Below are positions 24,501 through 59,149 of a stretch of 64,000 bases of DNA, in pieces; position 1 is the stretch's first letter, and each line of letters begins with the position of its first letter. Made by a program: the position numbers and the translations under genes. The notes under the pieces were generated by a model. The model did not search any database and had not been told where the DNA came from. It saw nothing but the letters and a program-made list of their open reading frames with translations. Source of the stretch: Marsupella aquatica (lineage: Eukaryota > Plantae > Marchantiophyta); the NCBI GenBank assembly GCA_973895155.1, contig OZ316893.1:15716645-15780644 (forward strand). Reading direction: 5' to 3'.

Positions 24501-24790
24501 GCAAATGCTACGGGAATGGCATTTTGAAATTTGTCATACACAACAACTGTGTAGAAAGGGAACTGCCAATGGAAAACAAAACAAAACTTAAAAGTGTCAT
24601 GGTATATACAGTACATTTGAAGCAAGTACAAAATTGTCTGCAACAATGACCAAAACTTCTAAATGGCAATACAAGGAATTGCAAATAAGGTACAGTAAAT
24701 GCATAGCTTACTCCAAAGTGGTTGGTACCAAAAGTTGCATCAAATGCTACGGGTCCATCATGACCAAGAAGCGATAGCTTCTTTTGCTGC

Positions 24791-26283: not shown

Positions 26284-26721
26284 TGCACCCCCCCTTAAAA
26301 ATGGTCACGTCCGCGTGACCTAAGTAGTGTTCCAACACGCCTAGACCACTTTGGGCCTTAAATTTTTTTTTATGAGGTAACAAATGGTTTGCCCATAAGG
26401 CTGATGCAAACCATTGGTATGCGCATTCCAAACTTAGGAAATTCCAATCTATCCCACTTATCCAAGTAGGATGGCAGTCCAAACGGGTAAGCTAACTCCA
26501 AACTCGTCGGACCCATTGTCCTCCCCTTGGGGTGCTCCCCTTTGGTTTGAACTAGCCCGCCCACAGATGTAGGGCGGGCACCATCAACTTCCACTTGCAA
26601 AAAGCAAATTGGCCGCCCAACAACCTCTAGCACCAACGCAATCCGACTTTATCCTTAAGAGGCCGAGAGGAGTGAAACTAGGATACAACTCACAAAGGTA
26701 GCTACAGCTGCCTGTACCAGT

Positions 26722-30794: not shown

Positions 30795-31860
30795 CTGATT
30801 CTAGTAATAAGTGATGAACTTTTGGATATCACCCCTGAAACTCATCTCCGTTACACATTTCTGAGCGTGCCGCTCCGGGTACTTAGTGGTGACATGAGCA
30901 TGGAGACCCTCAACCAGGTTTTCCCAAGTTAACGGCAAGGAGGAGTCCTCTCACGACTTCTTCCATGACTTGTACCAAGTCAAGGCATAGTCCTTCAGGT
31001 TAGGAGTGGCTGCGGTAGCCCAAGTGGAACGCTCAACACACGCTTGGAGATGAATCTCCATCGTGGAGAGCCAACTTAGGAACTTTTGTCCACTTTGCTC
31101 GTAGGCCCCGTCGTAAGTTGGAGGAGTCAGTAGCTGGTTCACTTGGAACATACTCCGTCCAACTACCATTCCCCCCTCGGGACGCGATGCACTCTGACTA
31201 CCCAGACTAAGTAAGTACTTAATCTGGGCCCCCTTGTTGTGTTCCAACTGCTCATAGATGAGTCGTTGGTCTTGAGTCAACGGACCCAGACCGTCGTCAG
31301 CGGCTGGGCCCTTGCGGGTTTTATGAGGACGGTCCTCCAACCGTCTTTCCTTTGCGGGCCGCCTGTCCTTAGGTTCTCTTGTGGATTTTGGTGACACCCC
31401 CTGTGTCTTGCGAGCACCATGACCTCCCGGGACTGAGGTATCACCCGCGTCATCCTGGTTCTGCTTGGTCAAATTATCCACGATGATGTCTGGCTTGGCA
31501 TCATCCTCTGGTACCGCGTTCAACCCTCTCAAGGTTGGGATCAGTTCCTTTTCCGGGTCCTAACCCTCTTCCTTTGTCTCAGCTTTGACAGTGTTGTCGT
31601 TGTGTGGTTGCGTCGGAGTTGTCGTCATCCGACCCATCCTCTGAAGGATCAGCCGCCTCCTTCCCTTTAAGTTGACGGTGCTCTGCACTTGACTTGTTTG
31701 CCGCAGCGGTTGACGGTTTGGCCGTTGCGTCTTCTTTGTCTTGCTTATAACGTTCGTCGAGGGAAGTTGACCCATCCTCCTTCTGTTCATCGTGAACTTG
31801 GGCTCTCCCCTTGGTGGGGGGAGCTTGCTTGCCACTCTTTGCACGAGTGTTTCTTGCCAT
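30795..31860 (-). pseudogene. gag: Chromovirus gag N-terminal/capsid region (broken)
   Basis: MARNTRAKS... start at 31860; PPTYDG...FLSWL..ME...LKDYALTWY capsid motif; in-frame stops and frameshift. Confidence 0.8.
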
Positions 31861-31991
31861 GTCCCCAGCGACCGAATCTACTCGCAGTCAACCCGCCGGG
31901 CACGTTGAAGCACTAAGTCCCCGCAAAAATCTGTTAAGATTTTTGGATTCCGACTTAGCACAACCCCGGCCCGCTGTCTATGCCAACAATC

Positions 31992-32000
31992 GCTCTGATA
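31992..32000 (-). promoter_or_regulatory. Partial tRNA-iMet primer binding site TATCAGAGC
   Basis: Minus strand reads LTR end ...CCACCACT|TGTCA TATCAGAGC; the canonical plant PBS is TGGTATCAGAGC. Confidence 0.6.
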
Positions 32001-32005
32001 TGACA

Positions 32006-33493
32006 AGTGGTGGACCTAGCCACCCAGCGCCCTCACCAATCCCAGCACTTGCGCCTAAGTGCCCTTGGTGCCCAAATGCCTCCACGGAATATCTCGAGCA
32101 AGCATCCAAGTGCCCCTAGCACCACCAGCGGCCACTCCCATATGAAACCGCACTTGCTTACCTACACGACCACTACTCAACGGTCCTGATTGTCTGCACA
32201 AACAACCAAGCACCTCGGTAAGTAACCCCTCTGGATCTAGAACTTGCCAAGTCTAGCATCCTAACTCAAGCTCAACAGACGTTGGTAAATAGGTCAGCGA
32301 TAGGTCCTCCCGATGCCATAAGCCGGAACCAGAACCCACGCCCACTATCCGTCCAGGACAGCTCCTTCCTTGGGCGCGGCCCGGGTTCCCCCTTGTACCT
32401 ATCCATCACCAACTGACCGCCCTGACCTCAGGACATGCTCATGGCCCAATTAGCGTAGCTTGTCCTAAAGCTTGTCCCGAGCTTGTCTCAACACGCCGGG
32501 ACCAGAATGGCCCCGACTCTAACAACCGCTCCCGGTTTGCCCCACTGATGGTCTAGGACCGAGCGCCCTTGAGACTCAGCCTCCATACCTACTTGGCCTT
32601 GCCTCCCTAACGCAAGCTCCCTTGGGAGGCTGAACACGGCTTGGCTGCTGTTCGGCAGGATTTGGCAAGCGGGCGAGCTAACACCCGCAAACCATGAGCA
32701 CCCATGGCACCCCCAGACCCATCTGAGCTCGAGAGGGCATAGTCCTCTTCAAGATTTTTCCAACGAACCCAAGAAGTCCTCCAACGGACTTCCCGTTGGG
32801 AAGATATCGCCATTTCCGTTTGGCGGTTTCCCTTAGTGTCGCGACCACCGCGGCTCACGACTTTGGCCCGCCCTTAGCCCCCAGGGAGACACCACTCCCC
32901 TCATATATGCTTCTGGGGACCTGCCACCCCCGGACCAGCTTTGGTCCCTAAACATTTGGCCCCCAACCCGGATCCCATCGCGCATAATGGCCACCAACTG
33001 GCAACGCCCATAACTTTCTTGATAGGCATCCGCAAGCGGAGTGCCTTAGCCCGTTGTGACCGGGCTGACCCAATGCTCATGCCTAGGCCCTCAGGTCTGA
33101 TCGCCGCTCGGGACCCCCAACCGGCCCAACCCGGATCGGGCCACAACTCGCGCCCCAAGCGTCCATTGCCAATGACATCAACTCCATTGGCCTTGGGCCC
33201 AAGAGGAGCTCACTCACAAGCCCTCAGAACTCAAAGCCCATCCGATGGTCCGTACGGCCACCCTTGAGCCCGGCCCATTTCCCCTTGACCCAACCAGCCA
33301 TAGGCTAGTCCAAGTCCTTAGTGTGTGTCCCTAGCTTGGCCCCTTGCCTCGCTAGTGTCACGTCTCATTGCCCACAAGTCTCCCCATGCTAAGTCCTCCC
33401 CGGATGGCCTATCCGGGCCTGGACCATAAGGGAGCTCGGCGTTGGAGTCAGCGACGTCGGAGCTAAGTGTTAAGGTAGTCGAGTTCCGCGACT
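32006..33493 (-). repeat. 5' LTR of the chromovirus
   Basis: Direct repeat of 24791-26283 with scattered substitutions and small indels; termini AGT...ACT. Confidence 0.93.
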
Positions 33494-35422: not shown

Positions 35423-35572
35423 TTAGAGGAATGATATTGAATAAATATGTGACAAGCGCACTAACTCTCAACTTAGAGGAATGATATTGAATAAATATGT
35501 GACAAGCGCACTAACTCTCAACTTAGAGGAATGATATTGAATAAATATGTGACAAGCGCACTAACTGTCAAC
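35423..35572. repeat. Tandem repeat, 3 x 50 bp
   Basis: TTAGAGGAATGATATTGAATAAATATGTGACAAGCGCACTAACTCTCAAC at 35423, 35473 and 35523 (one substitution in the third). Confidence 0.95.
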
Positions 35573-36290
35573 AGAGTAACGACCTCAGAAAGACAGTTAC
35601 GGAACCACAAATTAGGCCGACAGCCCGCTAAGAGAGAGGTACTTTACTACTTTGCTGTTAGGCCTGAGGAGTACTCCACTATCCCCAGATTATTAGAGTC
35701 CTATTCCTCCCAATACTTTTGTTTGTTTGTTAGATATAAACTGAATTATGTTATCCGCAAGCTTGTATTAGTTTTGCCCAAGCCACCAAAGGCTTTCTCA
35801 CTCGAACCTTAAAATTGTAACCCAAAAGAAATTTGCTTTTTCACTTCAAATAAAGAAATCATCGAGCTCAAGATATCAAGATATGTGAAGGTGAATAATT
35901 GCACGGAAGTGGATGTCAATAGTTGTGTTATGATTACCTAGGCGAGCACGGTCCTGCAGCAGACCACGTGCAACAGCTGTGCTGATTGGGCCAGAGTTTC
36001 ATTAAAGCACAATGATGAGGATGGGAATCATGTGACATTTCTGTACTTTGCCTGAACATTGGTGAGCGAGTAGAACGAACGGATGAACATCATTCTGTGA
36101 TGCGATGAGAATAGAAAAGTTGGGAATGCGATGAGGTGCGATACCGTAAACCTTTACGAGAACATGCATAGAGCATTGCACGGAGGCAATTTCTCCAGTA
36201 TCGACTGCAAGAGTAGCTGTGTCAGGCCCACACGGCCCACTTGCCTTTTCTAGCCATGCATGCATGCAGTCTAATAAGACTACGTTTACG

Positions 36291-41500: not shown

Positions 41501-42125
41501 AAAATAACTTTCCCAAGTAAACTCCCAAATGAGTTCTCAAAAGGCAAGTGACAGAAACCTATATTTCCCTAAAAGAACTAAACCCCCGTCTCTTAACCAA
41601 ACCTAAGACAAATCAATCTGGCCATAGTCTAACCACATTAAAACCAGGACACACCCCGGCCATGATTGCCATGGTTAAGGTAGCTGCAGCAGTTCACCAC
41701 TGGTTGTCCTTCTTTTTTGAAGACATCCAGTGACATGTCTTCATTCAAATTTTGTTGAATACATGCAGCACCATGTCTTTGTTCAAAAAATAGAAAATGA
41801 TATAGCAAACACAGTTTTGGGCGCATCATTTCTCAATTCCGCAATATTTTGATCCGTTAGCCGCATCACCTCTTGGTTTCTGAATGGCAGTTGTTCACGA
41901 GGTTGCTCATAGGAGATAGTGGAGCTTGAGTAAGCTTCTTTGAATGACTTTGTGATGCCTTTGATTGGAACTGATTGTTAGCCCAGAGATGCAGCTGACA
42001 ATTGTTATGCAGCTAACAATTGTGAGGCCAATCATGTCGTCTGCCCTTACGCCATGGTCGGGCATTCTCTTACCTTTGTACGCAATACAATGATCGTAAA
42101 TTATCAGGTTCAAACTGTACCTTGC

Positions 42126-42560
42126 AGTTGCAGAACTCGACTACCCTAACACTTAGCTCTAGCCTCGCTGACTCCGATGCCAAGCTCCTCTATCGTCCAC
42201 GCCTCCAGATCAGCCATCCGGTGGGGACTAAGTATGGGGAGACTAGTGGGCAACGAGGCATTGTACTAGCAAGAGCAAGACGCTAAGCTGGTGACGCACC
42301 TAAGGATTTAGACTAGCATGGAGCTGGTTGGGTCATGGGAAGGGCCAGGCTTATGGTGGACTATCCGGACCCCCAAATGGACTTTGAGTTCTGAAGGCTT
42401 GAGTGAGAGCTCCTCTTGGGCAGCACGGCCCAGGTGTGGCCATCCATGACCCCAGAGTGACGACGGGTGTTGAGGGCCTAGGCATGAGCATTGGGTTGAC
42501 CCATTCACAATGGGCTAAGGCACTCCACTTACAGGTCTCTAGCTAGAAAGTTATGGGCAT
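42126..42560 (+). repeat. Diverged LTR fragment related to the chromovirus LTR; target of the DNMT element (continues at 59128-59149)
   Basis: AGTTGCAGAACTCGACTACCCTAACACTTAGC matches the chromovirus LTR start AGTCGCGGAACTCGACTACCTTAACACTTAGC. The joined flanks match the uninterrupted copy at ~59625-59657. Confidence 0.8.
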
Positions 42561-43149
42561 TGTCGTGCAAATCCACATCGTCATACAACATACATCGTTG
42601 GTCATGCCATACTCACATACATGCATAACATGGACAAGAGCATACACAAATACAAGACAGTGTACCGTAACTGAAATCCGTGAAAGACATACTGTCATAA
42701 AACACGTAAGAACACACACAGTCAAGCCAAATCCACTCTGCAATGGAGAATCTAGGTTGAAGCTAACGGGACACCATAGCCAAGGAGCTCCACTCACTAC
42801 CAAGGCTCTCCCAATGCCAAAGGCTCAGCTCAAAGAACTAACCGTCCTTTGAGCCTCTCCACACTATACCCTCCAACCCTAAGGGTGGGTCCTACTAGAG
42901 GAGTCACCCTCAACAGGGCACCCCCTCTAAACCTCTACCATGGAACCAGACTCCTAACTAGGCACTACGGCCCATCTAAGGTATGGACTTTGCTAGCACA
43001 CTACATAGTCTAGCACGCTACGTATGGTCATGACAACTGTCGTGCGAATCCACATCGTCATACAACATACATTGCTGGTTATGCCATACTCATATACATG
43101 CATAACATGGACAAGAGCATACACAAATACAAGACAATGTACCGTAACT
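42561..43149 (-). repeat. 3' terminal repeat block: A (42561-42672), B (42672-43035), 2-nt spacer, A' (43038-43149)
   Basis: A and A' are 112-bp direct repeats. B is a 364-bp direct repeat of 58764-59127. PPT AGGGGGGCG (43158-43150) abuts A' on the minus strand. Confidence 0.92.
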
Positions 43150-43319
43150 CGCCCCCCTAACTGGCGGTTAGGTCCCTCTAACTCCCAGGTAGCGCTATCC
43201 ATCTACTACATGCTATACACCTTCGTGGGTGCACGGATCAGAAGGTCGGGTGCTATGTTGCCCCATCGTTAATTGCCCATCTGCAATCCATACCATGTGA
43301 AGATCAAGTCATCCACCTC

Positions 43320-43470
43320 CTAAGTACACTGAGGACAAACCCACTGTCTGTCCAATAGGCACAACATCAATAGGTGGAGTTAAGCATGACATATGCCAAC
43401 CCCTAGAACACCTATCACAAACCAACATACGGGCTGCTTCACCAGCAGACCCACACAACATGCACCTCAA
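43320..43470 (-). pseudogene. PHD finger at the C-terminus of the integrase
   Basis: CMLCGSAGEAARMLVCDRCSRGWHMSCLTPPIDVVPIGQ..VCPQC (C4HC3; last Cys pair after a frameshift). Confidence 0.85.
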
Positions 43471-43502
43471 GCTAGCACGTATCACTGCCAAGCTGGGGTC
43501 CA

Positions 43503-46458
43503 CTATATACCATTCACATTTGGGAGGTGACATGGCACACAATTACGCACATGGTACTTCCAAACAACACCATCACAACCCTCCAACATGAGAACTCCAT
43601 AAGCTAACACCTCTCTCACACGTAAGATAGTGCGTCCTACCGTCACATCCAACGTTGTCGGTGCAGTCTGCTGCAAATAGACATAGTCCCCCACATGGAA
43701 CCTACAAATGGATGGTCGATAACCTCCACCCCGGATGGTTGCATACCGCAACGTATCTCTATGTTGAGCAATGGCAAGGTTCTCAAAGGCTGTTGGCATA
43801 ACTCTTTGAAAGAGCTGTGCCCTTTGAGAACACACCCTCATCCACACCTCCGGGTCATCAAGGTTCACCACCTCACTAGAATCTTGACGAATTGTTGTGG
43901 GTAAGTCTGGGTCTCGGCCGTACAACAGAAAATAAGGTGAGAAGGAAGCCAAGGATGCTTGACGACTGAACCTATACCCCATGGCTAACCATGGCAACTG
44001 AATGTCCCAATCTCCAAGATGCCCCTTCTGTAGACCATACTTGCACAATCCCCTCTTCACCGTCTGAACAACACGCTCTGCCAAACTATCCGCCTCTGGA
44101 TGATCTTGAGATGTGGTCCGGTGATCAATCAACGCCTTGTCACACAAGACCTGAAACTCACCCTGAACTCTGTACCCTGGTCGATCAACACCTCCGCTGG
44201 TGCACCAAATGACTAAGCACTCTATCAAGAAATGCATATGCCGTTCCCTCACTTGCCTTGTCAGGCAATGCCACCAACTCAATCCACTTAGAAATTAAAG
44301 TGCTCCACCATTAGCAACACATACCGATGATGTACGTCGTCCAGTTAACGGTAATGGTCCTACAAAGTCCAAACTCCAACGGTAACCCAACCCCATAATA
44401 GGTAAGGGGTGTAACTGTGGTGTAGGGGCATTGAACGATGCCCTCACGTGATCGCAAACCATACAATGTGACACCAACTGTTGCACCTGAGTGTGCATGC
44501 CACGCCACCAATACTGACCAAGAAGTAAGCTATACATACGCTTTACTCCAAAATGTCCCAACTCCTCATGAGCATGTCGCACAATGCGCTCTCTCTGAGC
44601 TATATGGGGTACCACTCGTACTCTACCATCCTCCCACACACGGAGAACATGCGTTCCCTCCAATCGATACCTCCTAGCATGTTGGAGAACACGGTCTCGC
44701 TCCTTGGCACTCACTATGCCTGGCACCCTACTGGTCCGTAGGAACTCTAACACCAATGCATCACCATGAATATCACGCTGATCTGTAGCACCATCTCCAA
44801 CCTTTGGATATGCCGGATGGCCATCTACCCTCTGACTAGAGGAAGGTGTAAGGTGATCCTCCATACTAGAGTTCACACCCAACAAACACAAAAAGGCAGA
44901 TGCATGCCATCCTGGCACCATCTCCTCATCAACCTCTCCATGCCATCTAGACGGGCATCTAGATCCAGTATCATCCTCCTGACTAGGACATGGGTTCCTA
45001 CTCAACCCATCAGCATCAAGGTTGGTAACTCCAGGTCTATGTACCACTTGAAAGTCATACTCCTGTAAGATAAGAGCCCACCGTGCAAGCTTTCCTGTAA
45101 GCTTATCAGACTCCATCAACCACTTGAGTGGTTGGTGATCAGTAACAAGGGTAAACTTTGTGCCAAACAAGTAACACCTGAAGTGTGCCACAGCCCACAC
45201 TGCTGCCAAGCACTCTCCCTCGTACAAACCATAGCTTGATTTTGCTACATTGTTTGAACGACTTGCATAGGCCATCACAAACTCCTTGTTCTCATCATCA
45301 TGTTGTGTCAACACCACTCCAATCCCCAACATAATCAGTGTGCAGTTGAAATGGGCGACCCCTGATAGGTCTCCTCAAGATAGGCACAGACACCAACTTG
45401 GCCTTGAGCTCCATAAAAGCTCTCTCCTGGTCATCTCCCCACTGCCACTCCTGATCAGACTTCAACAACTTGTTCAAAGGCTTTGCCGTAGCACTAAATC
45501 CCTTCACATATCACCGATAGTAGTTTGCCAATCCCATGAATGCCCGAACTCTACTCACATCTGTCGGCCAAGGGATACGTGCAATAGCCTCAACCTTTGC
45601 CTGTTGGACCCCTAAACCACTTGGGTAGATCACATGACCCAAGTACTCAACATCCTCATGGAAGAACCTACACTTTCCTGGATGTAAACGTAGACCATGA
45701 GCCTTCAATCGCTCAAACACAATCTGCAAATGTTTTTGGTGCTCCTCCAGAATATCACTGAACACCAAGATATCATCAATGTAACACCAAACAAAATCCA
45801 ATCCTGCTAGGATCCTGTCCATCACTCTCTGAAACACGGCAGGTGCATTCTTCAACCCAAAGGGTAAGAATCGCCATTGATACAAACAATCCTTGCCATA
45901 TGAGTTGACTCCCCAAAATGCTGTTTTGGCCTTGTCACTCACTTGAATAGGCAACTGATGGTATCCTACCCGAAAATCCAAAGTACTGAAAATCCTTGCA
46001 TGTCCCACCACATCAAAGATCTCCTCAAGTGTGGGCATGGCATACCTATCGGCCTTTGTCTGTCTGATAGGACGGTAATCTCCACACATCCGGCTCTCTG
46101 TGTAGTTGCCATGCACATCCTTTTTGACAGGCATGACAGTGGTTGACGCATACTCCCCATGCGACAACTCCACTAATCCAGCCTCCAAAAGGTCCAACGT
46201 CTTACTCCGAATCAAGTCCCTCTCCATATCACTATATCTATAGGGACAACAAAAGATTGGCGTATCACTAGCCAAATCAATCTGTATACCAGGTCCAACC
46301 AAAGCACCCAACTCCTTCATGCTAAAGGCAAAACAACTCCTATAAGCACGACGTAGGAATTGTGTCAACTGTTGTCTTTCACCTCCTGTCAGCTTGGGTC
46401 CAAGTGATGGCTCCCAAGTCTCCTCTACCGGTACACTAGAGGAAGAGGATGACGCCAT
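43503..46458 (-). pseudogene. pol: RT, RNase H and integrase of the DNMT element (broken)
   Basis: RMCGDYR, LPFGLKNAPA.FQR, YIDDILVFS, LHTD, YASR, E.LA.VWAV.HFR, TDHQPL, HEELGHFG...C..C, WSLDF, LAERVVQTVKR. Confidence 0.93.
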
Positions 46459-46737
46459 TGGTTGCTATGCCACCTCCTTAGACAATGGCACATGCTCCTT
46501 TACACCATCATTTGAGCAAGCAACTCCTCCACCAGGGGCCACCAACTCTACATGCCCATCCATCACATCCCATGTACTCCAAGGATGCAAACTACTACTC
46601 TCCTCGCCCCCAGCCGATGCCTCTACCATCCTGGAAGGCAACGAGCTCATCACCAGGGGTGAAGTAACCACAGACATGGTCCTAAGTCTCCGCTGCTCGG
46701 CCATTGCAAGGCTCACAATCCACATCAAACAGTTCAG

Positions 46738-47670
46738 GTCCATAGCCTGACCCAACACCTGGCAACGTGATGCCTCTGAAACTGAAGAGACTAATGTCAC
46801 ACCGGTAAGAAACCCCATAGCACGCTCTCTCTCATCAGCGTTGGGCTCCACCAACTGGCACACATGAGAATCCCATACAAGCCTAGGACCACCATCCCTA
46901 TAGGCATGTGACAAGGGAAAACTCACAAATGTAGGCAAGCCATTCTAGGCTGCCCCACAAGGTTCACTATTGCCATGGGTGACCTATCCACCGCTCTCAC
47001 CACCTGAGAACGTTGTCCACCATCCAAAATACTATCCACGGTGAGAGATAGAGGCTGCTGGACTGCATCATAGGTGCGCCTCAAAACTCCCTGGGTAACA
47101 AGTTTGTCCACCACAACCGTGGACGATGTGCACGCGATCCCACCCTTGCTGCATCCAACAAAACAGCTGGCCCAATCCATGACCGTACCTCATGTGCAGC
47201 CGTGATCACATGAGATCTAGTATCACCCAACAAAGGGACGTTCTCCAGAATGTAAGCTGGAGCACGTGCCTGATGCACCTGAAGATGATGCAACACCTGC
47301 AACATCTCCCAAACATATGAGAACGAGGGTCACGTAACCCTCCACCATGACCAGCCCGAGTATGTCCCTGACATGGCCATCTAGCAATCACCAAATCAAT
47401 AGGGCCAACCCTCTCAAGGTCTTGCATCCCCAACAATGAAATGTCTGATGGAAAACTCCGCTGATACCCCTGAATAGCGGACCGTGACAACAACTCAGGG
47501 TATCTCTGCATCAACAATATATGCAAGATGTCATGATGAAACCCTCCTCACGGTCTCATCTCTCTCCACATACAAATACCTCCTCACAAGTATCCCGGCC
47601 TGCAACACTGCAGCCAAACCAGTGCTAATCCCACCAAATTAAGAGGTCCAACACACAAATACCCTCTGGT
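46738..47670 (-). pseudogene. C5-cytosine DNA methyltransferase domain, DNMT3-like, inside pol between PR and RT (frameshifted)
   Basis: Motif I VLDL-FGGISTG (4-nt insertion near 47640), II YLYVERD, IV IDLVIARWPCQGHTRAG, VI YILENV, VIII AHRPRLWWTNL, IX ERERAMGFLTGVT, X RCQVLGQAMD, in canonical order. Confidence 0.9.
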
Positions 47671-47678
47671 GGATACCC

Positions 47679-48416
47679 TCAAACAATGGGTGTTGTATCC
47701 AAAGGAGACAACCCCACTAAACCACCAGTAGGAGCACGTCTTGGAGCCTCCTCTACCTCCATAGGTACAAAGGGTGTGCTCCAAGCCTGTGATATCAAAT
47801 GATCAGCCTTCTGCCTCAACACTCCACCTGAACTCCAAAGTGGAACATCCAACAAGGAGGGTACCACTGCCGCCAAACTAAAGACCTCCTCTACCTCCTC
47901 ATAGACTGGAGAATCCAATGCTGAAAGTTTACCCTCCAACAAATCCCCTGGCCAAGTGACCGCTCCACTAAAACTAGCAACTGATGCCAATACCTCTGGG
48001 GAAGTCCCTCTTGGTCTAACCCCAGAAATAAATCTCACAGGCACCTGGCTCAAACGTCCATCACCAGACTGCCAACCAGGTCTAAAGGCTGTTGTCTCAG
48101 TCCAATAGTCCATCTGAAAACCCATTGGGTACAACACTGCACCTCCAACTAGTACATCATACGACTTTGCTGATGTCACCACAGCAGTCACTCCTAATGT
48201 AGAGCTATCAGTCGCATGATCTGGCCTCATCTGCACTGACACCCTCTCCCGTGTCATGAAGTGAGACCTATCACTGGCTCCTCCAAGTGATGTCTGAATC
48301 TGGAATGGGCATGGCTCCAACTCTGACCTCTGAATACCCAAACCAATACAAGTTGCCTTCCCCAACATCAAGGGTTGGGCACCAGAGTCCAACAACACCC
48401 TCTCTGGTCTATACAC
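47679..48416 (-). pseudogene. Aspartic protease region of the DNMT element
   Basis: VLLDSGAQ...YDVLVG retropepsin motifs. Confidence 0.8.
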
Positions 48417-50357
48417 CTGTCCTTAAGGACTCACCAATTGAAAGACACCACTCCTCTTGTCCAACATACATACTCCAGGTGTAAGCCTCTCACGATCAAT
48501 GGCTGGTCGGGCTGGTAATGCATCCATCCTCGCCACTGCCGCTTGCCAAGTAGCATCGGTACTTAATGCAACATTTGACACTAAGGGTTGCTCAAAAACA
48601 ACACCCTCACACACCTCAGCACTCGTAGCAGCAACACTCCCACGTTCACACAACGTGCCTGCTAGCTGAAATACACGAGTCATGTCAACTCTTGAGGCCA
48701 TCAACTCAGTTGCTGAAAACAATGAGGATCCTAATACTGAGGTTGCCATCCGCAACACTGCACTAGATGCTACATCTGTGTCTACTACACGTGATGTATA
48801 TGCCCTTGTATCCACTATCGGCTCAACAGATCTCATAAGAACCATGGATGGAGTCCTAAGCACCTTTGACAACAAGAATGACTGGGGAAGCCTAGCCTGC
48901 CTCCCAGCCTCACCCCTTTGTGGGTCCAACTCCACAGTGGCACCACGTGGCTCTGAAGCTCTACCTGCACATCTCATCAATGCAATTGATGCCTCAACTT
49001 GTGCCGCACTTGCTATATAAGAGAGATCACCCCCCCCATAAGACGTGGAAGCCCCTGCTCCCAAACCCGCTCGAGGTTGAATACCAGCCATAGTAGCAAG
49101 TCTTTGCTCCAACTGCTCAATCCTAGCCGCCATAGCAACCTCTGTCGTAGGGGTAGGGGCAGCCACTATAGGGGCTCCAACTGCTGGTGGACCTCTACCA
49201 CCCCTACCACCTCTACCAGCTCCACCACCTCGGCCTCTCTGAGGTGCTCCACCACAACCTCTACCACCCATCCTCAACTCTGGGTATAGGTCAAAACAAC
49301 GGTCTTGAGGATGACCTGCTCGACCACAATGATCACACTGCACCTGGGCCGACTGAGATCCATCCTCTAAACTCCGTCCTCCACTCTCTTGGGGACAAAC
49401 CCTCTGGACATGATCACCTCCTGTGACGCCGCCGGTACGGTGGGTAATGAGTGATTCGGCCTAAGCACACTTAGCATGTGCATTAGGGGTATCTTAGGCC
49501 ATAATTATTAGCGTAACGATAGTATTTAGGTAGCCATTATGAGTAGGAAATCATTATTCAATAAGGGGCATTCGTGTTTGGGCTGGCGGCGGGTCGCCAT
49601 TTGTACGCCTGGTTGTGAGCGTGTAATGGGCCCCCCTCCCTCGGGTCTGTATAACAAACTCCGGGAGACGGCCACTGACATGTGCTGACCCGGACTGGCG
49701 GACTGGCCGGTACACTGCAAGCGTGAAAGGCTTGGCCTATAAGCAACGAGGAGGCATCGGGCGACCAACGAGCTCTCAGGGTATAAAAAGGGGGCCGATC
49801 CTTTGCAGTGCACCAGTTCTTCAGTCCACGCGCCAGCTTCGACCCCAGTTCTCTTGCCCATCCTTAGTCGCCTTCTATCTCCTCTGAATGTCGCACACGA
49901 TCCTTTCCAGTTCGGCCATACACTTCTGGACGCAGTTCCTGTCTATTGGGCGGGCACTTGGCCGACTCATTAAAACACGCCAACCCGTGCCCATACGAAA
50001 TTGAACGCGAGTACGAGAGAGCCATCCGCCTAGCAGGCCACCACCACTATCTCCTTAACTTTGATTACCCGTCCCAGAGCGAGCTTTACCGACCCAAAGA
50101 AATATCAGGGTACTTCTTTGACAGGGGCAAATACATTGGCTTCTGGGAGGCATTGCTTCGGCTTTCGGACGCGGTCTTCACTATCCCGGGCATGATCAAC
50201 TTACAGCGGCACCACTTCGACCACATCCCCACTCGGGTCCAGGCCATCATCAACAGCGAGTTCAACACTACCCGATCGACAAGGCCGTCTACACTTGCTT
50301 CGGAAAACCTCTACCGGCACCTGCAAAACTTCATGGCAACCATACCATCAACCACCG

Positions 50358-50644
50358 CTCGGGGGGTTGACTATCAAAAATCTTAGGAACCACGTGCGAT
50401 CCAAAATAGGTATTTTTCATCGAAATTAGCTAAATTTTTAAAAAGCGTAGGAAGCAAAAGAAGGTATTATAGACCAATATTTATAGAATATTCTCTAATA
50501 TATATCATTTATAAAGTAAAATAGGTCATTAATATTGAAAATAGAGAATTTTTTTGGAATATTCCCATTATAAAATAGGTGTGTTTATATTAGGCTAGGA
50601 TCGCACGTGGTACCCCAAAATATACACTAAGTTAACCCCCCGAG
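50358..50644. mobile_element. 287-bp MITE, 8-bp TSD AACCACCG
   Basis: TIR CTCGGGGGGTT(G/A)AC; subterminal inverted CCACGTGCGATCC; TSD at 50350-50357 and 50645-50652. Confidence 0.92.
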
Positions 50645-50950
50645 AACCACCGGTGCCGGCCCAGCCGAGCCCGTGCCCGTACCCGCACCAATACCGGCTC
50701 AGGCTCCGCCTCAGGCTCCGCCTCAGCCTAGCCGAGCCCCACCGCCGGTCGCCCCGCCCATACAGGTGCGATCTATCGTCAACGTTGTGGACCTCAGCAA
50801 CGACAACGAGGCCCGGCCCCAATACTAATGGCGGTGGCACTACCCATACCCGATCGGGAGGATGGGGAGATGTCACCCTCTCCGAGCCATCACGGGAGCC
50901 AATCTCGGGGAAAGAAGAGGAAGGAACCCGCAGCTGTATCCGGGTTAACC

Positions 50951-53019
50951 ATGGCCACGGTAGCCGCTCGGGGGGTTGACTATCAAAAATCTTAGGAACC
51001 ACGTGCGATCCAAAATAGGTATTTTTGACAGATTTTAACTAAATTTTTAAAAAGCGTAGGAGGTAAAAGAAGGTATTATAAACTTGTGTTTATAGAATAT
51101 TCTTTAATATATACCCTTTATAAAGTAAAATAGGTTATTAATATTGAAAATAGAGAATATTCTTGGAATACTTTCTTTATAAAATAGGTCTATTTATATT
51201 AGGCTAGGATTGCACGTGGTACCCCAAAATATACACTTAGTTAACCCCCCAAGGGTAGCCGCGGCCAAGGTGACAATGCACCACATGGGGGAGAACGTGC
51301 ATAAGAACATTCTCCACCCCAAACATGCGATGTACTTGAAGACTCAGGGGTTCGAGCACCTCGCCTCTCTTCCCTGGAACACCTGCAGGTACTACAGGGA
51401 CGACATGAAGGAGTTCGTCAAGAATTATGATGACGTCCGTTAGGATACTCGGCCACGGGGGAGGAATATGTCCCTCATAGAGGAGCGGCTCAGGATGATC
51501 TTTGGGCTACCCAAGGGAGATCAACGAGTCAAATCAAGGGCTCATGGGGGCAAAGGAGCCAAGTACCAATCCTTGAGTTTCCCCTCCGAGGGGTCAGTGG
51601 ACAACGGGTTTGTGATGAGGACCTGCCTCATCCCCGAGATAGCCGAGCGGCTGGAGTTCCAGAGGTACGCCCTCCATATGATGGAACCCCGAGGCAAGAT
51701 CTCTGCTGCCCAGGTTATCCAGGTCAAGAACTATTGGCCTAGGAAGTGGGCGTCGTACTCTGCTATGAAGTTCCATGAAGAGATGGAACGGCAAAGGAAG
51801 GCGCTATACATCGGCAAGAAGGCATATTTTGCGAGCCACATCAAGATCATTCTCGAGTGGTACGCCCGGTTTGATCAACGAACCCTTCCCTAGGCCAACG
51901 TAACTAAGTTGGTCCCAACTAGGTGGGTCTTCCCGGCCTTGGAGAGACGGCCTCAACTCGAGGCCCAAAGTCTAGCGGCCACGTAGGCCTCACCCACCCC
52001 ACCTCCATGAGTAGCCATAATCGTGGCCGAAGAGGTACCGGACAAGGCACGGATCGCAACCTTAGACGCGATCAACCAGGCCGAGCGCAGAAGTCGGGGC
52101 GGTGGAGGCCTTGCCCAAGCCCGAGGGTCCAAAAGACCCACCGGTGGCTATTCTAGATGATAGCACAATGATGGAGGAGGACACCCCAGCCCCTTCCAAC
52201 ACTACATCCCTAGGGCTGGATGTCACTACCCTGGCTCCCACGCGAGTTGACGTCTACCCGTGCCCAACTCCGGACGGGCACAACCTGGACCACCTGGAAC
52301 TCTTCGTACCGAGTACATTTTTGAATGGGCTGTTGGGAGATTTCTCCCAATAGATTGCCCGAGATACCGGGGAGTTCATGGCCCGGAAGGTAGCCTACTT
52401 CTTCAACCAGGAGTTGGTTACCGCAGTAAAGGCAGGTCGGGCCCAGTCGGAGGCCCTTCAGAGGATAGAGCGGTACCGGGTTGAGTCTGTGTACCTAAAG
52501 GGAAAAATTGAGACTCAAGAGGCTGAGCTTCTGCAACTACGACCCAAGGTTGCAACCGCCGATGAGTTGTTAGCAAATGCGCATGCCCTTACCGCCTTAG
52601 CCGAACAGGCCAAAGCCAGGAAGGAGGCCAAGAATGCACGGCTCCGGACCCAGATTGACAGTTTGAAGAATCAAACTGTCATCTGGCAGAAAGACCTGGA
52701 GGAGGCCGACGAGCGGGACCAGCGTGACATTGTGGAGATTGCCGCCCTAAAGGCCAAAGTAGGATGGCTTCAAACCAAAGCCGAGAAGCAGAACCAGATG
52801 GTGGACAAGCTGACGAGCGACGCCCAACAACTGGAAGAGGCATGCCAGGAGGCAGCTGAGGAGACGAACGCGGCAAAGCGAGAGAACGAATCTCTGCTAG
52901 ACCAAGTCCAGCTCCTCAAGATGGACAACGATAGACTCCTAGGCAGCAGGATGGCCGCTCCCACTCAAACGGCTCTGGCAAGCACACCAGGCATTAGCGG
53001 AAGGTTAGGCTTAGAATAG
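50951..53019 (+). pseudogene. Accessory ORF of the nested element: plant-transposon-protein-like domain with coiled-coil tail (MITE-interrupted, stops)
   Basis: Removing the second MITE gives MATVA|AAKVTMHH...GFEHLASLPW...EFVKNY...IFGLPKG...NGF..TC..P.I.E. Heptad-rich tail 52378-53019. Homologous to the ORF at 62869. Confidence 0.65.
50967..51253. mobile_element. 287-bp MITE (second copy), 8-bp TSD GGTAGCCG
   Basis: Same family and orientation as 50358-50644; TSD at 50959-50966 and 51254-51261. Confidence 0.92.
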
Positions 53020-54009
53020 AACTAGGAGTAGCCAAAACAGGCTGTTAGGACAAGTGCCGGCCAGAAGATAGCGGCGCTAACACATTAGCCAGCCTGTGTA
53101 GAATAGGTTAGACTAATAGGACAAGCCGTAACCAGCTTAGCGAGGATATATTAAGTTAGCGTAGATTCGGGCACGAGGCCAGACTGGTCCTCAGCCCTTA
53201 GTATTTAGTAGCCCCCCGGTAGAGGCACGGGGGGGGATTTTAGACTCAAAAGTTGGCCATTCGCGATACGCACGGGGAGTCCCAAACTCGGTGAATTGCC
53301 GGAGTGCCAAGGGGAGGGTATACGACTAAGCTTGTCGGGCAAGTGCGGAGCCGGGCTCCGTTGTAGTGTATACTCCTCGGCCTTGGGCCCGTTCATTCAC
53401 GAGGTGTCGGGTCACCCAATCGTAAGTGTATAATCATATATGAATGAAATCCTTTCCCCTCAATTCCTTCGTGTAAATCAAGATTTATGTTTATGTATGA
53501 ATGCATGTATGAGTCTCGTGTGCAAGTATCAATGTCGGGCCAAACACGTTATGCCAAGCGTTCACAGGGTGTAGGTTACATGTACGGGGTGGCGAGCCCG
53601 GGTTGAGCACTTGTACTAATGAATCCGGATCAAAGGCGGTAACATGAAGGCTTAGAAGTCCGTAAGCCGGGGTCAACCCCGTGTCGACTAAGGTACGTTC
53701 CGATGGCGGAACACAAAGCATACCTAAGCGTGCTTGTAAGTAAATGTATGCACACTTAGCGCTAGTTTGGGAGAATTATGTGCACTCTGCACGTCCCTCC
53801 CTGCCCGAACTCAAATATTAGCAAGGGAAGTGTCTATCTTAGACATAGATAGGCCTAAGGACTAGGCCGATGGTGTGACATAGTTTTTGTTTTTGGCGCT
53901 AGATGGAGGGGGCACTCTACGTGTAGTAGAGGGGAGACATGTGCGAGTGCACCAGGGCAAGGTACACCAGGCCCCAGTTCATTACTAACCCTCGCATTTA
54001 TACGAGTAG

Positions 54010-55990
54010 ATGCCCGTCACCCATTCTCAAGCTGCTTACTTGAGGAGATTGACCAGCAAACGAGAGAGTGCGACCACAACAAGCTCCGAATCCTCAGGCT
54101 CGGAGGATTTGCCATCGCCTCGACAAATGAACATACCACCGGGACCTTCGGGGTCCGGTCCATCCGGTCCTGTTCCGGTCTCTACTGCACCACCGCCAAC
54201 ACTACCACCGCCAGCACTACCGATGGCAGCAGCCCCACCGGCTATGCCCCGCGCTGCCCAAGCTCCCCTACAAATATCACAACGGTCACGGTTTCATTAT
54301 CGACCTTTCAAAGGGCGTCATGGGGACAATCTGGATGAATGGTTGGATGAATTCGAAGCCACTACTAAGGCCAACGGGGAAGATGCCATTAAGCTAACCG
54401 TCCTCCCCGTTGTGATGCGGGGAGAAGCTCGTCCATGGTACAACTCGCTGCCACCCGGAACTACATGGGCACAATTCCAATCTGCGTTGCTGCAAGAGTT
54501 TCGTGCCATTGGATCAGAGTAGCGCTCTTTATTAAAGATCGGCCAGCTTCGCATGGCAAAGAAGGAATCCTTGCGAAAGTTCATTCAGAAGTTTTAGAAA
54601 CTTGCCGCCAAGATCCGGCCCAGGCCAGGTGATGCGCTCCAGCTTACATGGTTCCTCCACGGTTTGCCCATGAATATGCAATTTTGGGTGCGCCAGAATA
54701 ACCCAATTTCAATGCAAGCAGCCATAGCGTGCGCCGAAACCTGCCGGGAGTCCACTTATAACTCTCGGCCAACGGGCACGCCACAAGAAGGGCAAATACG
54801 AGACCTTCAGTGACAGTGACTCCAAATTGGATGACGAGAAGAAGAAGAAATGCAAGAAGAAGAAGAAACATCGTTCGACCTCGTCCAGTTCGGAGACCGA
54901 ATCTAGTTTGGATTTGACTTCGACCAGCGGACCGTCCATTTCCAGCTCATGGGGAAGTGATTTGGAGAGCGAGAGCCGGAGCAAGAAGAAGAAGAGGCGG
55001 GTTAAGAAGGAGGGGAAAATCAAACCCCGTGTTCAAAGAACGATACCCGATCCGAAGGCCGCTGAAGCAGATAAGCTCAATGAAATTACGGATCGTCTCA
55101 AAGCACTACCAGTACACCTTGCGGACAAGCCCTTGGAGAAAAAGAAACCTTCCAAGACCCGAGCACACGCATGGTGCTCCAAGTGTTTCCAATCCGGACA
55201 CGTGGTGCAAGAATGCCCGCGATGGAAGAATAGGGTCCATCAGGTGGAATTGGAGGACGCTGACAGCCCGGGACCAGAATTGGAGTCCACCAAGTACTTC
55301 TTTGAAGACTCCAAGGATTCTGTATACCAGATTTTCACGATGGGTTTGCGCAACTTAGCTGGTAGGACGGCCTACCCTTACCCAAACAATGGCAGGAATG
55401 TCCAGGTTATCAGTAACCCGAGCATCCCTCCTAAACCCGGGATTTGGCGATCCCTAGTTTGTTACAACTGTGAGAAGCCGGGCCACTTTGCCAGGGAATG
55501 CACCAAGCCAAGACGGCAGGGAGAGGCCCACTCCACGGCCAATTGCCCCTTGGTGATCGCTGCCCGAGCCAGTGCAGCCAGGCCGGCCCTAGGAGGTCCT
55601 GCTGCTAGCGATGCTGTCATACAAATGATTGCTGTAGAATGGCAAGATGATACCATGGAATGGGTAAATCTGGTGGATGTGGTGGAACACCCGAATCCAT
55701 CGGACAAAGTCGAGTGCTACCATGTGTCGACTCGGGCCGAATGAAAGCAAGAGAAATAGGAAGAGAAGCGTCGGAAAAAGCAAGATACTACCCCGGTGCA
55801 GCCAGCAGTAGAAATTTCCCCAGAGGAGGATGACGATTACCGGCGAGACAACCCAAAGCTATTCTTCCCCCGCATTGAAGAATATGTTAAGAAGCAGATG
55901 GAGGCTTATGAAGCACGCAAATACCATAAAGCTATCGACAAGGACATCAAAGCAGCCGAAGCCGCCCAAAGACAAGAGCAGGAGAAGCAA
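54010..55990 (+). pseudogene. gag: Gag of the nested element with two CCHC knuckles (stops and frameshift)
   Basis: FKGRHGDNLDEWLDEFE, ARPWY, TWAQFQSALLQEF, CSKCFQSGHVVQEC, CYNCEKPGHFAREC. Confidence 0.85.
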
Positions 55991-58752
55991 CACATGTCCA
56001 ACACACTGGTCCTTGCTGCTGGGCAGCATATGAAGGCAACGGTCTCTGCACACCCGTCCCTCTAGAACCTGACTGAGGTCGTGCCAAACGCCTCCACGAC
56101 TCCCACTACTACCACCACCACCACTACTACGAGACTATAAAGTGGCTGGCTGAACACAAGAAGTAGTGGCGGTATCCCTACTAAATGCAGATGTCACTAC
56201 CCTCTCCTCCACCATGTTAAGCTCAATCTTCTCAGCCAAAGCAAACACATGGGACAACGTGGGTGGATCATCACTCATCAGAGTAGCATCACGTACCGTC
56301 CTCCGCAACTCTCTGTCCAAAATCCCATACCAGAACTGGATAGCCTGCACCTCAGTCACACCCTGGGTAACTGAAATCAAACGCCGCATACGAGTGTATG
56401 CCTCACGAAGACTCTCACCAGTCTTTCTCTCAAACTCCTGAAGACTCCTCAACTTCTCTGTCTTCACCCCCTGGTAGTTCTTCTTCAACCTCTTGAAGAA
56501 CTCCGTAACTGGGCTGAACGAAGGTGGAACGCTAGTGCCTCCACTAGTGCCTCCACTAGCACCTCCACTAGTGCCTCCACTAGTGCCTCCACTGGTACCT
56601 CCACTAGTACCAACACCACCCTGAGTGATAGACACATAGGCTGGAGCCCAATGTTGTCTCCATGCCTCAATCTCAACAGCATGGTCCTTCCGGAACTCAT
56701 GATAATCATCCATGGGAGGCCCCTCCAAGTGCTGAAACAACCCCTTCAAGAAAGGTGTAAACAACATGGCGTTACGCAACATCTGCATATCACACCATGT
56801 ATCAAACTCTTGGATGAAGTCCTCCAACTCAATGGTGCTCACTACCCCTGAGTAATGTTGTGGGCCCTTCATGGCCCCGTACATCCCGTCCATATCCCAA
56901 ATCAATGGGGCTGCTACACTGGACAATACAACTGAAAACTTGATGCTTGGAACACCCTCGTCCTCCTTCTCATCAACTAACAATAGTGGGAAAGGTAGCC
57001 AATACCTCAATCCACTCCGTGTAAAACCACCAGTGTCTGCACCAAGGTCCCCAACAGGACCACCAAACTGCTCCGTGATGACAAGCTGCAACAGCACCAC
57101 CACCAAATCACCACCACTAAGTAACCAAGTAATGTCGATGTCACCGTATTACTCTAGCCCTAATAGCTACATGGGTGTGGGCAACCTAACCTGTCACCAC
57201 AAGCAGCCTCCCATGGTCTACTGGTCATTACTCCAGTCTCACCGTGAGAGAAACATAGGTAGTCTGACTGGTCATCACTCCAGCCTCACTACCGGCAACA
57301 CACTAGAGTAAAACTACTCCGGAAATCAGCGTTAGCCCTAACAATGGGCGCGCAAGCAAGAAGCAGCAATGGAGGGGATCCAAACACAGGAAGTACAACG
57401 ACAACCCTAGCCTCCAATCGCAAATGAAATACAAAACAGAAATCAAGGTAACACAATCCACCAACCGTGGTGCCCCTTGAATCCACAAAACAAACCACAC
57501 AATCCTAACGCAATGTAGCTACTCCGCTAGTAGTCTATGACGTGCATGCTCCTCGCACTCCCAGCATTTGATAATGTCACTTGCATGGAAACGCTATCCA
57601 CCACCATCCGCTAGGAATCCCAAAACGGGTCCTAACGCGACCTAAAACGATGCATATATGGGGGAAAATGTCCAAATAATACACCAATTCCTCTAAGGCA
57701 GTCTATACACTAGCAGAATTCAGAACCTGCCAGTTAAGCGTCTTGCAGGCACAATAGTGCAAACATGGGTGACCAGTTATGCAACACAATACTCACAAAA
57801 ACTACTCACAAATTTGCAAAACTGTCTCACGCCCAAGCAAGCTTGCTTGCTTGCTCCCTTGCTCCTTTCTCCGCCTCTCACGCCCACTCGCCCCGAGCTA
57901 CCACGAGTTGCCTCAAAGCCTCAAAACGCCGAGACATGCCCCTTTTGCCTCGACTCGCTCCGCTACGCTACGAGCAAAGCGCCCCCAACATGCAAGTTTG
58001 CTATCCACCATAGCCAGGCCTTGAGCTAGTCTGCCAAATTTTGATCTCTGATTACTCCGTGAATCCTTGACGAAAAATGAATCTGTCTGGACCAGAATTC
58101 AATTGGCCACCATAGCTATCTCTCTACAAGAAATCAACTACAACTGAGGTCTGTACTTTGAGCTAAAAATCGGACAACATTTTGGCCTATACATTTCTGA
58201 AGTTGCACAACGCTTTTGCTCACGATCTATGAGCCACAAGTAGGACAGCGCTTCCGCGCCACTGATCACACAACACAAATCTGCAACTCTGTCATCCAGA
58301 TCTACTACCAACGCACTGAAATCCGGCAGCGCTTTTGCATAGATTCATCAATACAAAAATCTGCAACGGTTCCTCTCTGAAACAACAATTCGCTCCACAC
58401 ACCAGAGCTAAATAGTTCTGCACGATTGAATCGATGTTGCAAATCAGACAAGGATCAACATCAAAAACCTCTCACCCGATCTAGATGACTTCCAACAGAG
58501 CTTCCGCGCACTCAAGCTTTCCAAATCTGAAAAACCGTAGAACACGAACCAAATTCTTCATTCTTTGATTACTTCCAACTTGCTTGACCAAACCAGGCGA
58601 TCTTTAGTGCGTTGGAAAGCTCTCAGCAACACGCTTCTTCCGCACCCATACACGCACCAAATCCACAAACCACAATGTATCCACGGCTGATGCTATCAAA
58701 CAGCCCACCAGATCCTATTGATCTCCGATCGAAGTTACAATCGATCACTACG

Positions 58753-58763
58753 AGTTCTTTGAG
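58753..58763 (-). promoter_or_regulatory. Self-complementary primer binding site CTCAAAGAACT
   Basis: Directly abuts the 5' repeat B' on the minus strand and is the exact complement of AGTTCTTTGAG inside B' (58931-58921). No TGG tRNA-type PBS is present. Confidence 0.7.
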
Positions 58764-59127
58764 TGAAATCCGTGAAAGACATACTATCATAAAACACGTA
58801 AGAACACACACAGTCAAGCCAAACCCACTCCGCAATGGAGAATCTAGGCCGAAGCTAACGGGACACCATAGCCAAGGAGCTCCACTCACTACCAAGGCTC
58901 TCCCAATGCCAAAGGCTCAACTCAAAGAACTAACCGTCCTTTGAGCCTCTCCACACTATACCCTCCAACCCTAAGGGCGGATCCTACTAGAGGAGTCACC
59001 CTCAACAGGGCACCCCCTCTAACCCTCTACCATGGAACCAGACTCCTAACTAGGCACTACAACCCATCTAAGGTATGGACTCTACTAGTACACTACATAG
59101 TCTAGCACGCTACGTATGGTCATGACA
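58764..59127 (-). repeat. 5' terminal repeat B' of the DNMT element
   Basis: 364-bp direct repeat of 42672-43035; about 14 substitutions by eye, nearly all transitions. Confidence 0.93.
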
Positions 59128-59149
59128 GCATAGCAAGTTAGTTGCGTGT

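Follow-up and report, generated by a model that had tools for sequence, protein, structure and literature searches.

A decayed Ty3/gypsy copy of Marsupella aquatica with a DNMT3-like methyltransferase domain, a PHD finger on its integrase and split terminal repeats

In a 64,000-nucleotide stretch of the liverwort Marsupella aquatica (contig OZ316893.1, positions 15,716,645 to 15,780,644; hereafter the window), we found a decayed Ty3/gypsy retrotransposon copy on the minus strand, from 42561 to 59127 (16.6 kb), with GCAT as a 4-bp target-site duplication (TSD) on both sides. It starts with TGTCA, finishes with CGACA and lies within the long terminal repeat (LTR) of another family. Its domains are ordered as Gag, protease (PR), DNMT3-like C5 methyltransferase (DNMT), reverse transcriptase (RT), RNase H (RH), integrase (IN) and PHD finger, an arrangement that recurs across related loci. 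A first-pass annotation had given this polyprotein the span 43320..47670; the domains are there, but the element reaches far beyond it. Sequence comparisons support a genuine DNMT3-like domain under selection inside a gypsy element. The features are given below with their positions in the window; L082 is an intact, distant member of the lineage, with 49% DNMT identity.

42557..42560, no strand: left copy of the target-site duplication, GCAT; the window also contains a homologous LTR stretch without the interruption
42561..42672, minus: repeat B2, putative U3-proximal part of the LTR, 95% identical to B1; the element ends here with CGACA
42672..43035, minus: repeat A2, putative rest of U3, R and U5, starting with TGTCA; 96% identical to A1
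43030..43043, minus: B1/A2 junction CGACA-GT-TGTCA, abutted ends with a 2-bp spacer; candidate internal integrase attachment (att) site
43038..43149, minus: repeat B1, from the repeat comparison
43150..43160, minus: polypurine-tract-like run AGGGGGGCG, immediately before B1; conserved in related loci and L082
43320..43500, minus: PHD finger at the integrase C-terminus, frameshifted in this copy (PF00628, E=4.9e-9)
43503..44610, minus: integrase, H2C2 zinc finger and core, frameshifted (PF17921, E=3e-15; rve in intact L082 ORF2)
44990..45400, minus: RNase H (PF17917, E=7e-30)
45511..46464, minus: reverse transcriptase, start of ORF2 (PF00078, E=6e-31; YIDD at 45783)
46459..46467, minus: in-frame TAG (46465-46467) followed by CAACCA, a CARYYA readthrough context; 48/49 junction-spanning loci have the stop
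46690..47670, minus: DNMT3-like C5 methyltransferase domain, end of ORF1, broken here (Pfam, PDB sequence, structure-model and translation comparisons)
48100..48422, minus: aspartic protease, LLDSGA at 48395 (no Pfam match on the window piece; PF13650 on relatives)
48423..49421, minus: 3' part of Gag with a Cys/His knuckle, aligning to Marchantia Mp_4g09160 from residue 306
49422..55991, plus: nested insertion inside gag, an unrelated truncated gag/zinc-knuckle element of 6.6 kb
55992..56893, minus: 5' part of Gag, 70% identical to Mp_4g09160 residues 1-260 (PF03732 weak)
58753..58763, minus: primer-binding site CTCAAAGAACT, complementary to 58921-58931, putatively self-priming
58764..59127, minus: repeat A1, 5' end, starting with TGTCA; TATA-like box at 58955-58960, putative transcript start and self-primer at 58921-58931
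59128..59131, no strand: right copy of the target-site duplication, GCAT, from the flank comparison

The window copy is dead. Its DNMT is interrupted by five frame-breaking indels plus one stop or more, and the RT, RNase H, integrase and PHD regions are damaged too; these breaks look copy-specific, since related copies on contigs from three other organisms differ at several of them. The two A repeats differ at 14 of 364 sites, comparable to the 45 of 1485 between the LTRs of a neighbouring chromovirus. Regarding the hallmarks of Ty3/gypsy elements, we found the PR-RT-RH-IN order with a DDE integrase, ends of the TG...CA type (TGTCA...CGACA) with a duplication of 4 bp, inside the usual 4-6 bp, and both a primer-binding site (PBS, of self-priming type) after the 5' repeat and a polypurine tract (PPT, preceding B1) before the 3' repeat. 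A complete direct LTR at each end is lacking; the repeats are split as A...B-A-B instead.

All the methyltransferase motifs previously read from the letters were located in order between PR and RT on the minus strand: I at 47632-47648, II (YVERDET) at 47554-47572, IV (PCQ) at 47367-47406, VI (YILENV) at 47239-47254, VIII (AHRPRLWWTNL) at 47101-47131, IX (ERERAMGF) at 46812-46848 and X (LGQAMD) at 46740-46755. With PF00145, the profile that had been proposed for a check, one window piece scored E=0.0026, under the gathering cut-off, and six of six intact relatives scored above it (E from 1e-7 to 6e-12). The resemblance to DNMT3 was confirmed too: searches of PDB sequences with intact relatives gave DNMT3A/B/C as best matches (E 7e-11) and the DRM-type entries 4onj/4onq at only 1e-3, and an AlphaFold model of the L082 domain (low confidence, pLDDT 54) had DNMT3A as its first structural match (E 7e-13), at ~20% identity. 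The two best-aligned window pieces are 78-82% identical to a Sphagnum protein, a closeness that, with the RT identities given below, points to a bryophyte host. The domain is intronless within the gypsy polyprotein. Neither of two outcomes named beforehand as fatal to the idea appeared, as the DNMT segment has no TSD of its own, runs on from PR without a break in intact relatives and is present in sister copies.

When one DNMT piece was used as query, 41 proteins were returned; those with a named source come from Sphagnum troendelagicum, Calypogeia fissa and Marchantia polymorpha, and the last two entered the analysis as protein sequences. The metagenome loci analyzed are the best 80 of 93, several of them one insertion assembled twice, and belong mostly to one family ~90% identical to the Sphagnum protein; as they were found via the DNMT, they are no measure of DNMT loss. 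The Gag-PR-DNMT-RT-RH-IN-PHD order is kept wherever contigs reach, internally deleted copies excepted, and one contig of another organism spans DNMT and RT. L082 holds a full gypsy-DNMT3 element (L082 1-9285), whose 127-bp overlapping ends probably reflect a collapsed or circular assembly. Its contig is binned as 'uncultured Synechococcales' and UniRef files its RT under the cyanobacterium; the origin is most likely eukaryotic. Searches of viral contigs for relatives gave one weak match, 37 mostly short or partial matches and, in a third search, none; they yielded no DNA of chlorophyte-type elements.

A profile search yielded 393 clusters at E up to 1e-30, of which the best 150 were considered. 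Among the 228 proteins collected, 49 were of a PR-DNMT type, with Klebsormidium nitens (GAQ93235.1) and Closterium as named hosts, and 35 of an RT-RH-DNMT-IN-PHD type, a sister group with the DNMT between RNase H and integrase in which Scenedesmus sp. is named. Besides, a Coleochaete transcript encodes a close RT-RH-IN-PHD. In a tree of 42 selected DNMT domains the two types separated with support 99/97, GAQ93235.1 falling on the PR-DNMT side; of the phylogeny called for earlier, this tree covers the algal part, without host DNMT3. This also bears on the view of the element as an oddity among land plants: a DNMT-gypsy is indeed present there, but it is not isolated, being in the same clade as the K. 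nitens PR-DNMT protein. Deep nodes were weak in the FastTree trees of RT and IN. Four RH-IN-PHD proteins without DNMT sit within the second type, so DNMT loss may occur. The window RT is 81% identical to Marchantia and Sphagnum-type copies and 35% to the chromovirus in the window. Moss-type and liverwort copies (P0013, P0024, L012 and window 45511-47670) are very close, with short branches and a dS of ~0.65 between window and Sphagnum-type, and this closeness hints at horizontal transfer among bryophytes.

Comparing the window with four Sphagnum-type loci, we obtained dN/dS values of 0.20-0.26 for the DNMT, 0.18-0.24 for the integrase and 0.28-0.48 for the short PHD; RT gave 0.15-0.18 (three loci and a reference). 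The DNMT is therefore under purifying selection, as the first-pass annotation had suggested checking. Between families its dN/dS was 0.18-0.26, and among decayed copies within the Sphagnum-type family 0.55-0.63. Synonymous C before G is strongly depleted in the DNMT element: it was counted at 16 of 292 sites, whereas the chromovirus nearby, which is of similar age, had 71 of 170 (p ~1e-21) and the nested insert 53 of 120 (p ~1e-19). Locus L027 gave 9 of 322, with little loss of CWG. Raw counts had suggested a CG-only signature, which we rejected because the synonymous-site test shows CWG loss too. No non-family pol ORFs that could serve as controls were found in the locus flanks.

The DNMT is the last domain of ORF1 (Gag-PR-DNMT), and the in-frame TAG at 46465-46467 parts it from RT. 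It thus shares its frame with pol, as had been expected, but lies outside the pol ORF, separated by a conserved stop. This stop occupies the same position in 48 of the 49 junction-spanning loci (32 TAG, 16 TAA; the other has GAG), and intact L082 has a single TAG between an ORF1 of at least 1162 aa and an ORF2 of 1047 aa. The hexamer that follows is CAACCA in the window, L027 and L019, CAATCA in L082 and CAACCC in most Sphagnum-type loci, so the exact CARYYA is found in the window, L027, L082 and L019. Stop-CARYYA has been described as the readthrough consensus in plants (PMC5397192). There is no ATG directly after the stop in L027 and L082, which argues against reinitiation as a general rule. 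In most of the predicted PR-DNMT proteins 55-181 aa follow the domain, in GAQ93235.1 only 12 aa. Since ORF1 ends with the DNMT before the stop, the enzyme is likely made at the level of Gag, in excess over Pol, in this branch. With good probability, the RNA would start ~30 nt past the TATA box in A1 and be translated into Gag-PR-DNMT, with readthrough of UAG-CARYYA now and then adding RT-RH-IN-PHD.

The PHD finger noticed after the integrase proved to be a lineage-wide feature. In the window PF00628 matches at 43312-43500 (E=4.9e-9), with a frameshift near 43353; the PHD is reached in 25 of 82 loci, and 115 of 117 new matches from a search with the integrase region terminate in a PHD. PHDs that read H3K4me3 have an aromatic-cage Trp two residues before the His ligand. 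Here, that position is Gly in 169 of 186 sequences (GW/GY/GF), with (M/L)(L/I)LCD as the dominant core, and by its sequence this is a PHD without the H3K4me3 cage. The closest solved structures are PHF12, CHD4, KDM5A/B, DPF2/3, UHRF1, ATXR5 and PHF21A, whose PHDs are readers of the unmethylated H3 N-terminus. A conserved acidic residue before the first Cys was absent from the PHD sequences compared, which makes discrimination of K4 uncertain. We predict, with fair rather than high confidence, that the PHD would bind the unmodified H3 N-terminus and steer integration. It had been likened to the ADD domain of DNMT3, which regulates that enzyme in cis; a PHD is present, but the analogy is weak because it sits on the integrase, in the other ORF, and has no K4me3 cage. 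In one chlorophyte-type polyprotein (P0074), a Tudor-like domain (PF21743) follows the PHD at residues 1191-1239.

Regarding the ends, the layout in the window is A1...B1-A2-B2. B-A-B was also seen in seven loci, and five loci with both ends visible had A...B only; short A-internal-B copies with intact TSDs are common. Among 10 scorable loci, the 4-bp TSD was exact in eight and had one mismatch in two. The junction CGACA-NN-TGTCA, with its 2-bp spacer, is found in all eight metagenome loci whose junction is undamaged, as well as in L082, and the purine run upstream of B1 is likewise kept. The 11 nt after A1 are complementary (11/11 in the window) to a site in A ~30 nt below the TATA box; at the same place the complement is 9-11/11 in 17 of 24 loci, and 12/12 with a changed sequence in L082. 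Such complementarity to the RNA 5' end is the signature of Tf1-type self-priming (PMC4600332, PMC6317226). Neither tRNA genes nor a TGG-type PBS were found in the window. The A/B junction is precise in seven of nine independent copies; one retains a PBS remnant and another has a short insertion, as expected of end-joined circles.

As the purine run precedes B1, the self-priming site follows A and the termini meet as CGACA-NN-TGTCA inside the LTR, we infer that the true LTR is B+A and that the integrated form is a permuted 2-LTR circle opened at the B/A site. Foamy-virus integrase, for instance, cuts palindromic 2-LTR junctions (PMC1180852). The first 11 nt of the RNA would, we are fairly sure, anneal to the PBS and start reverse transcription in the manner of Tf1, and the PPT before B would prime the plus strand, giving a linear [B A]-internal-[B A]. 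The ends would then be joined into an A/B junction, and the integrase would cut CA-NN-TG between B and A and insert the molecule with a 4-bp duplication, yielding A-internal-B-A-B; we hold these last steps to be probable, less firmly than the priming.

The order of the domains, their motifs and the purifying selection on them were read directly, as were the stop, the repeats, the duplicated target and the complementarity; activity, RNA and circle were not observed. Taken together, the findings slightly favour the view that the window copy is a decayed member of an ancient Ty3/gypsy lineage of green plants with a DNMT3-like methyltransferase and a PHD-tipped integrase, in which Gag-level DNMT would be packaged to methylate the element's own cDNA and integration would proceed from a 2-LTR circle opened inside one LTR. 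Several observations weigh against it. Taken as a whole, the leader of the window copy is predicted to fold little better than shuffled sequences (z -1.5). In the window and Sphagnum-type families there is an in-frame ATG two codons past the stop, where reinitiation is possible, and several relatives (P0071, P0092, P0266) join DNMT to RT without a stop. As to the circle, its two att sites should be equal, yet none of the 26 loci whose 5' end is visible had the mirror product A-B-A-internal-B. This absence favours a mechanism without any covalent circle, in which the integrase would act on linear cDNA, cutting at the internal site of its left LTR and inserting both halves, the host then repairing the break by end joining (A-internal-B-A-B) or by B1-B2 annealing (A-internal-B). 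The left site is only ~112 bp from the DNA end, which would account for the one-sided outcome, and the short A-internal-B copies with intact TSDs, common as they are (five loci with both ends visible), also speak for it. However, short forms can also arise after insertion or in assembly, as L020 (short) and L048 (long) have one flank in common, and a break at each insertion would be costly. We regard cutting of linear cDNA as possible and less likely than opening of a circle.

As to the purpose of the enzyme, the idea that a co-packaged DNMT would methylate CG in the cDNA, so that each new copy arrives marked like host DNA, was already proposed by de Mendoza et al. 2018 (PMC5890265), and we give self-methylation of the cDNA even chances. 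The loss of CpG in L082 and L070 is only ordinary (odds ratios 0.49 and 0.47), CWG is depleted too in the window copy (odds ratio 0.23), which hints at methylation by the host as well, and the KnitGypsy-Dnmt3 domain of K. nitens gave no de novo methylation in yeast, a result its authors call inconclusive (PMC5890265); all three count against self-methylation. In the same report human DNMT3B also failed, and retrotransposon DNMT3 domains of dinoflagellate SymbioDIRS methylated CG (PMC5890265). The ordinary CpG level of intact L082 would suit an enzyme that acts elsewhere, on host chromatin at the insertion site, in trans on defence genes or other transposons, or as a copy-number brake, with Gag-level expression supplying a nuclear pool. 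Expression from ORF1 would presumably yield far more enzyme than one cDNA requires, and options that benefit the host were raised by de Mendoza et al. (PMC5890265). We nevertheless find action elsewhere rather unlikely, since the loss of CpG seen in the window and L027 is specific to the element and the chlorophyte-type DNMT lies inside Pol beside the integrase, which fits a role in the particle. Slightly less plausible still is that the domain has been retained as a binding module or to methylate RNA, CpG loss being the work of host silencing. The negative yeast test and the depletion of CWG could be read this way, and so could motif IV, where ECQ replaces PCQ in 76 of 179 motif matches; yet DNMTs of the clade retain the catalytic Cys, ENV and the arginines of motif VIII, the modelled fold is that of DNMT3, and the dinoflagellate domains are active on CG. 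Finally, a broken copy with a nested insertion elsewhere in it could suggest a single event, in which one dead element captured a piece of a host methyltransferase or received it by nested insertion, or else a chimera made in assembly. This we rejected as having next to no probability: the fusion recurs in the best 80 of 93 metagenome loci under purifying selection and in named Marchantia, Calypogeia, Sphagnum, Closterium and Klebsormidium proteins, and another organism's contig bridges DNMT and RT.

By its sequence, the window element belongs with the published KnitGypsy-Dnmt3, or streptophyte Gypsy-DNMT3, type as a variant, and GAQ93235.1 appears to be a copy of the published element. Both share gypsy domains, an intronless DNMT3-like domain, purifying selection and a DIRS-like A...B-A-B (PMC5890265). 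KnitGypsy-Dnmt3 is presented as having been acquired in the lineage leading to K. nitens, and its DNMT as part of the Pol ORF (PMC5890265), whereas the window clade has land-plant hosts, a PHD on the integrase and a DNMT that ends the Gag-PR ORF before a putative leaky stop; DNMT, RT and RNase H do not share one ORF here, where the stop is conserved, and other branches are fused. The available part of that text makes no mention of the PHD, self-priming, PPT or internal att site of the window clade (PMC5890265). A streptophyte Gypsy-DNMT3 is also mentioned in the accessible part of a preprint (bioRxiv 10.64898/2026.05.21.726589). SymbioDIRS-Dnmt3 has a DNMT3 domain too and, like other DIRS, PAT and Ngaro elements, the A-coding-B-A-B layout, but DIRS/PAT/Ngaro use a tyrosine recombinase, and the window element instead encodes a DDE integrase, has termini of the TG...CA type and is flanked by a TSD of 4 bp; no Pfam match to a tyrosine recombinase was found in the ORFs scanned, which did not include the L082 leader ORFs. 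Identity with Troyka was rejected, as Troyka has CG...CG ends, a 3-bp TSD and, as far as described, animal hosts only (PMC12440569).

The Tf1/sushi group, Tcn1 and Tj1 likewise have a PBS complementary to the RNA 5' end, and Tj1 a stop before pol (PMC4600332, PMC6317226), which in the window element comes after PR and DNMT. These elements have ordinary LTRs and mostly chromodomains, unlike the split repeats and PHD found here; L082 ORF2 gave no chromodomain match and has a PHD in its place. Chlamydomonas Gypsy-7a_cRei and REM1 carry a PHD as an accessory domain thought to guide insertion, and no DNMT is listed for Gypsy-7a_cRei in the available text (PMC9940879). Compared with host DNMT3 (PpDNMT3b, human DNMT3A), the clade DNMT has the same unrearranged motif order and fold, but is ~20% identical to DNMT3A, lacks PWWP and ADD and is part of a polyprotein; PpDNMT3b performs de novo CG and CHH methylation (PMC6453930). 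Retrotransposon DNMT3s have so far been described from dinoflagellates and Klebsormidium (PMC5890265), and the split repeats of the K. nitens element were noted before only as DIRS-like, in a legend (PMC5890265). In the literature covered, which leaves most subscription papers, Repbase and theses outside, we found no description of bryophyte or chlorophyte copies, of the readthrough stop or of the internal att site for this clade. As far as searched, the range over land plants and chlorophytes, a DNMT that ends the Gag ORF behind a putative leaky stop, the PHD on the integrase, self-priming and the permuted LTR would thus be new.

The surroundings are rich in other repeats. The nested plus-strand insert at 49422-55991 begins with TG; it contains gag with a zinc knuckle, an ORF predicted as coiled coil (52354-53019) and a repeat of 290 bp spaced 609 bp apart (50355 and 50964); we found neither a target duplication nor a second LTR for it. 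The chromovirus used as CpG control lies at 24793-33493 on the minus strand (chromodomain PF00385, E=1e-13; 1.49-kb LTRs, 97% identical), and a quick test found no exact self-priming match in it. The flanks of the DNMT element (42123-42560 and 59128-60963) belong to an LTR 70-80% related to this chromovirus, and a further LTR of the chromovirus-related family at 59147-60736, 19 bp past the 5' end of the DNMT element, shows repeated nesting. Between 7300 and 24660 there are several long ORFs on both strands with no Pfam match except a weak MULE (23924-24658), and with SWIM-like Cys/His motifs seen by eye at 16481-17029 and 23426-23923; they are probably decayed DNA transposons. At 35423-35582 and 6767-7250 there are a tandem repeat of 50 bp (three copies) and a repeat family of 54 nt with four copies.

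A broader reading, which we put forward only tentatively, is that a single DNMT3 capture founded a pan-green-plant gypsy clade, from chlorophytes to mosses and liverworts, with a writer (DNMT) and a reader (PHD), and that in its streptophyte branch the att site moved inside the LTR and integration follows an obligate cycle of copy-out, circle and paste-in in which Gag-level DNMT would pre-methylate each copy. IS3/IS30 circles with a 2-bp spacer are an analogue of such a cycle. If true, the internal att site would free the streptophyte branch from the ragged ends of self-primed cDNA, and if the permuted-LTR reading holds, this would be a retroelement with a DDE integrase whose normal substrate is the 2-LTR circle, usually deemed a dead end. 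Such a reading also implies that the usual LTR finders would probably overlook these elements or misplace their borders, and that some genes annotated in bryophytes as 'DNA methyltransferase' are in fact ORF1s of transposons. Because Marchantia is a genetic model for which methylation mutants exist, the question of how carrying a methyltransferase benefits a transposon becomes testable.

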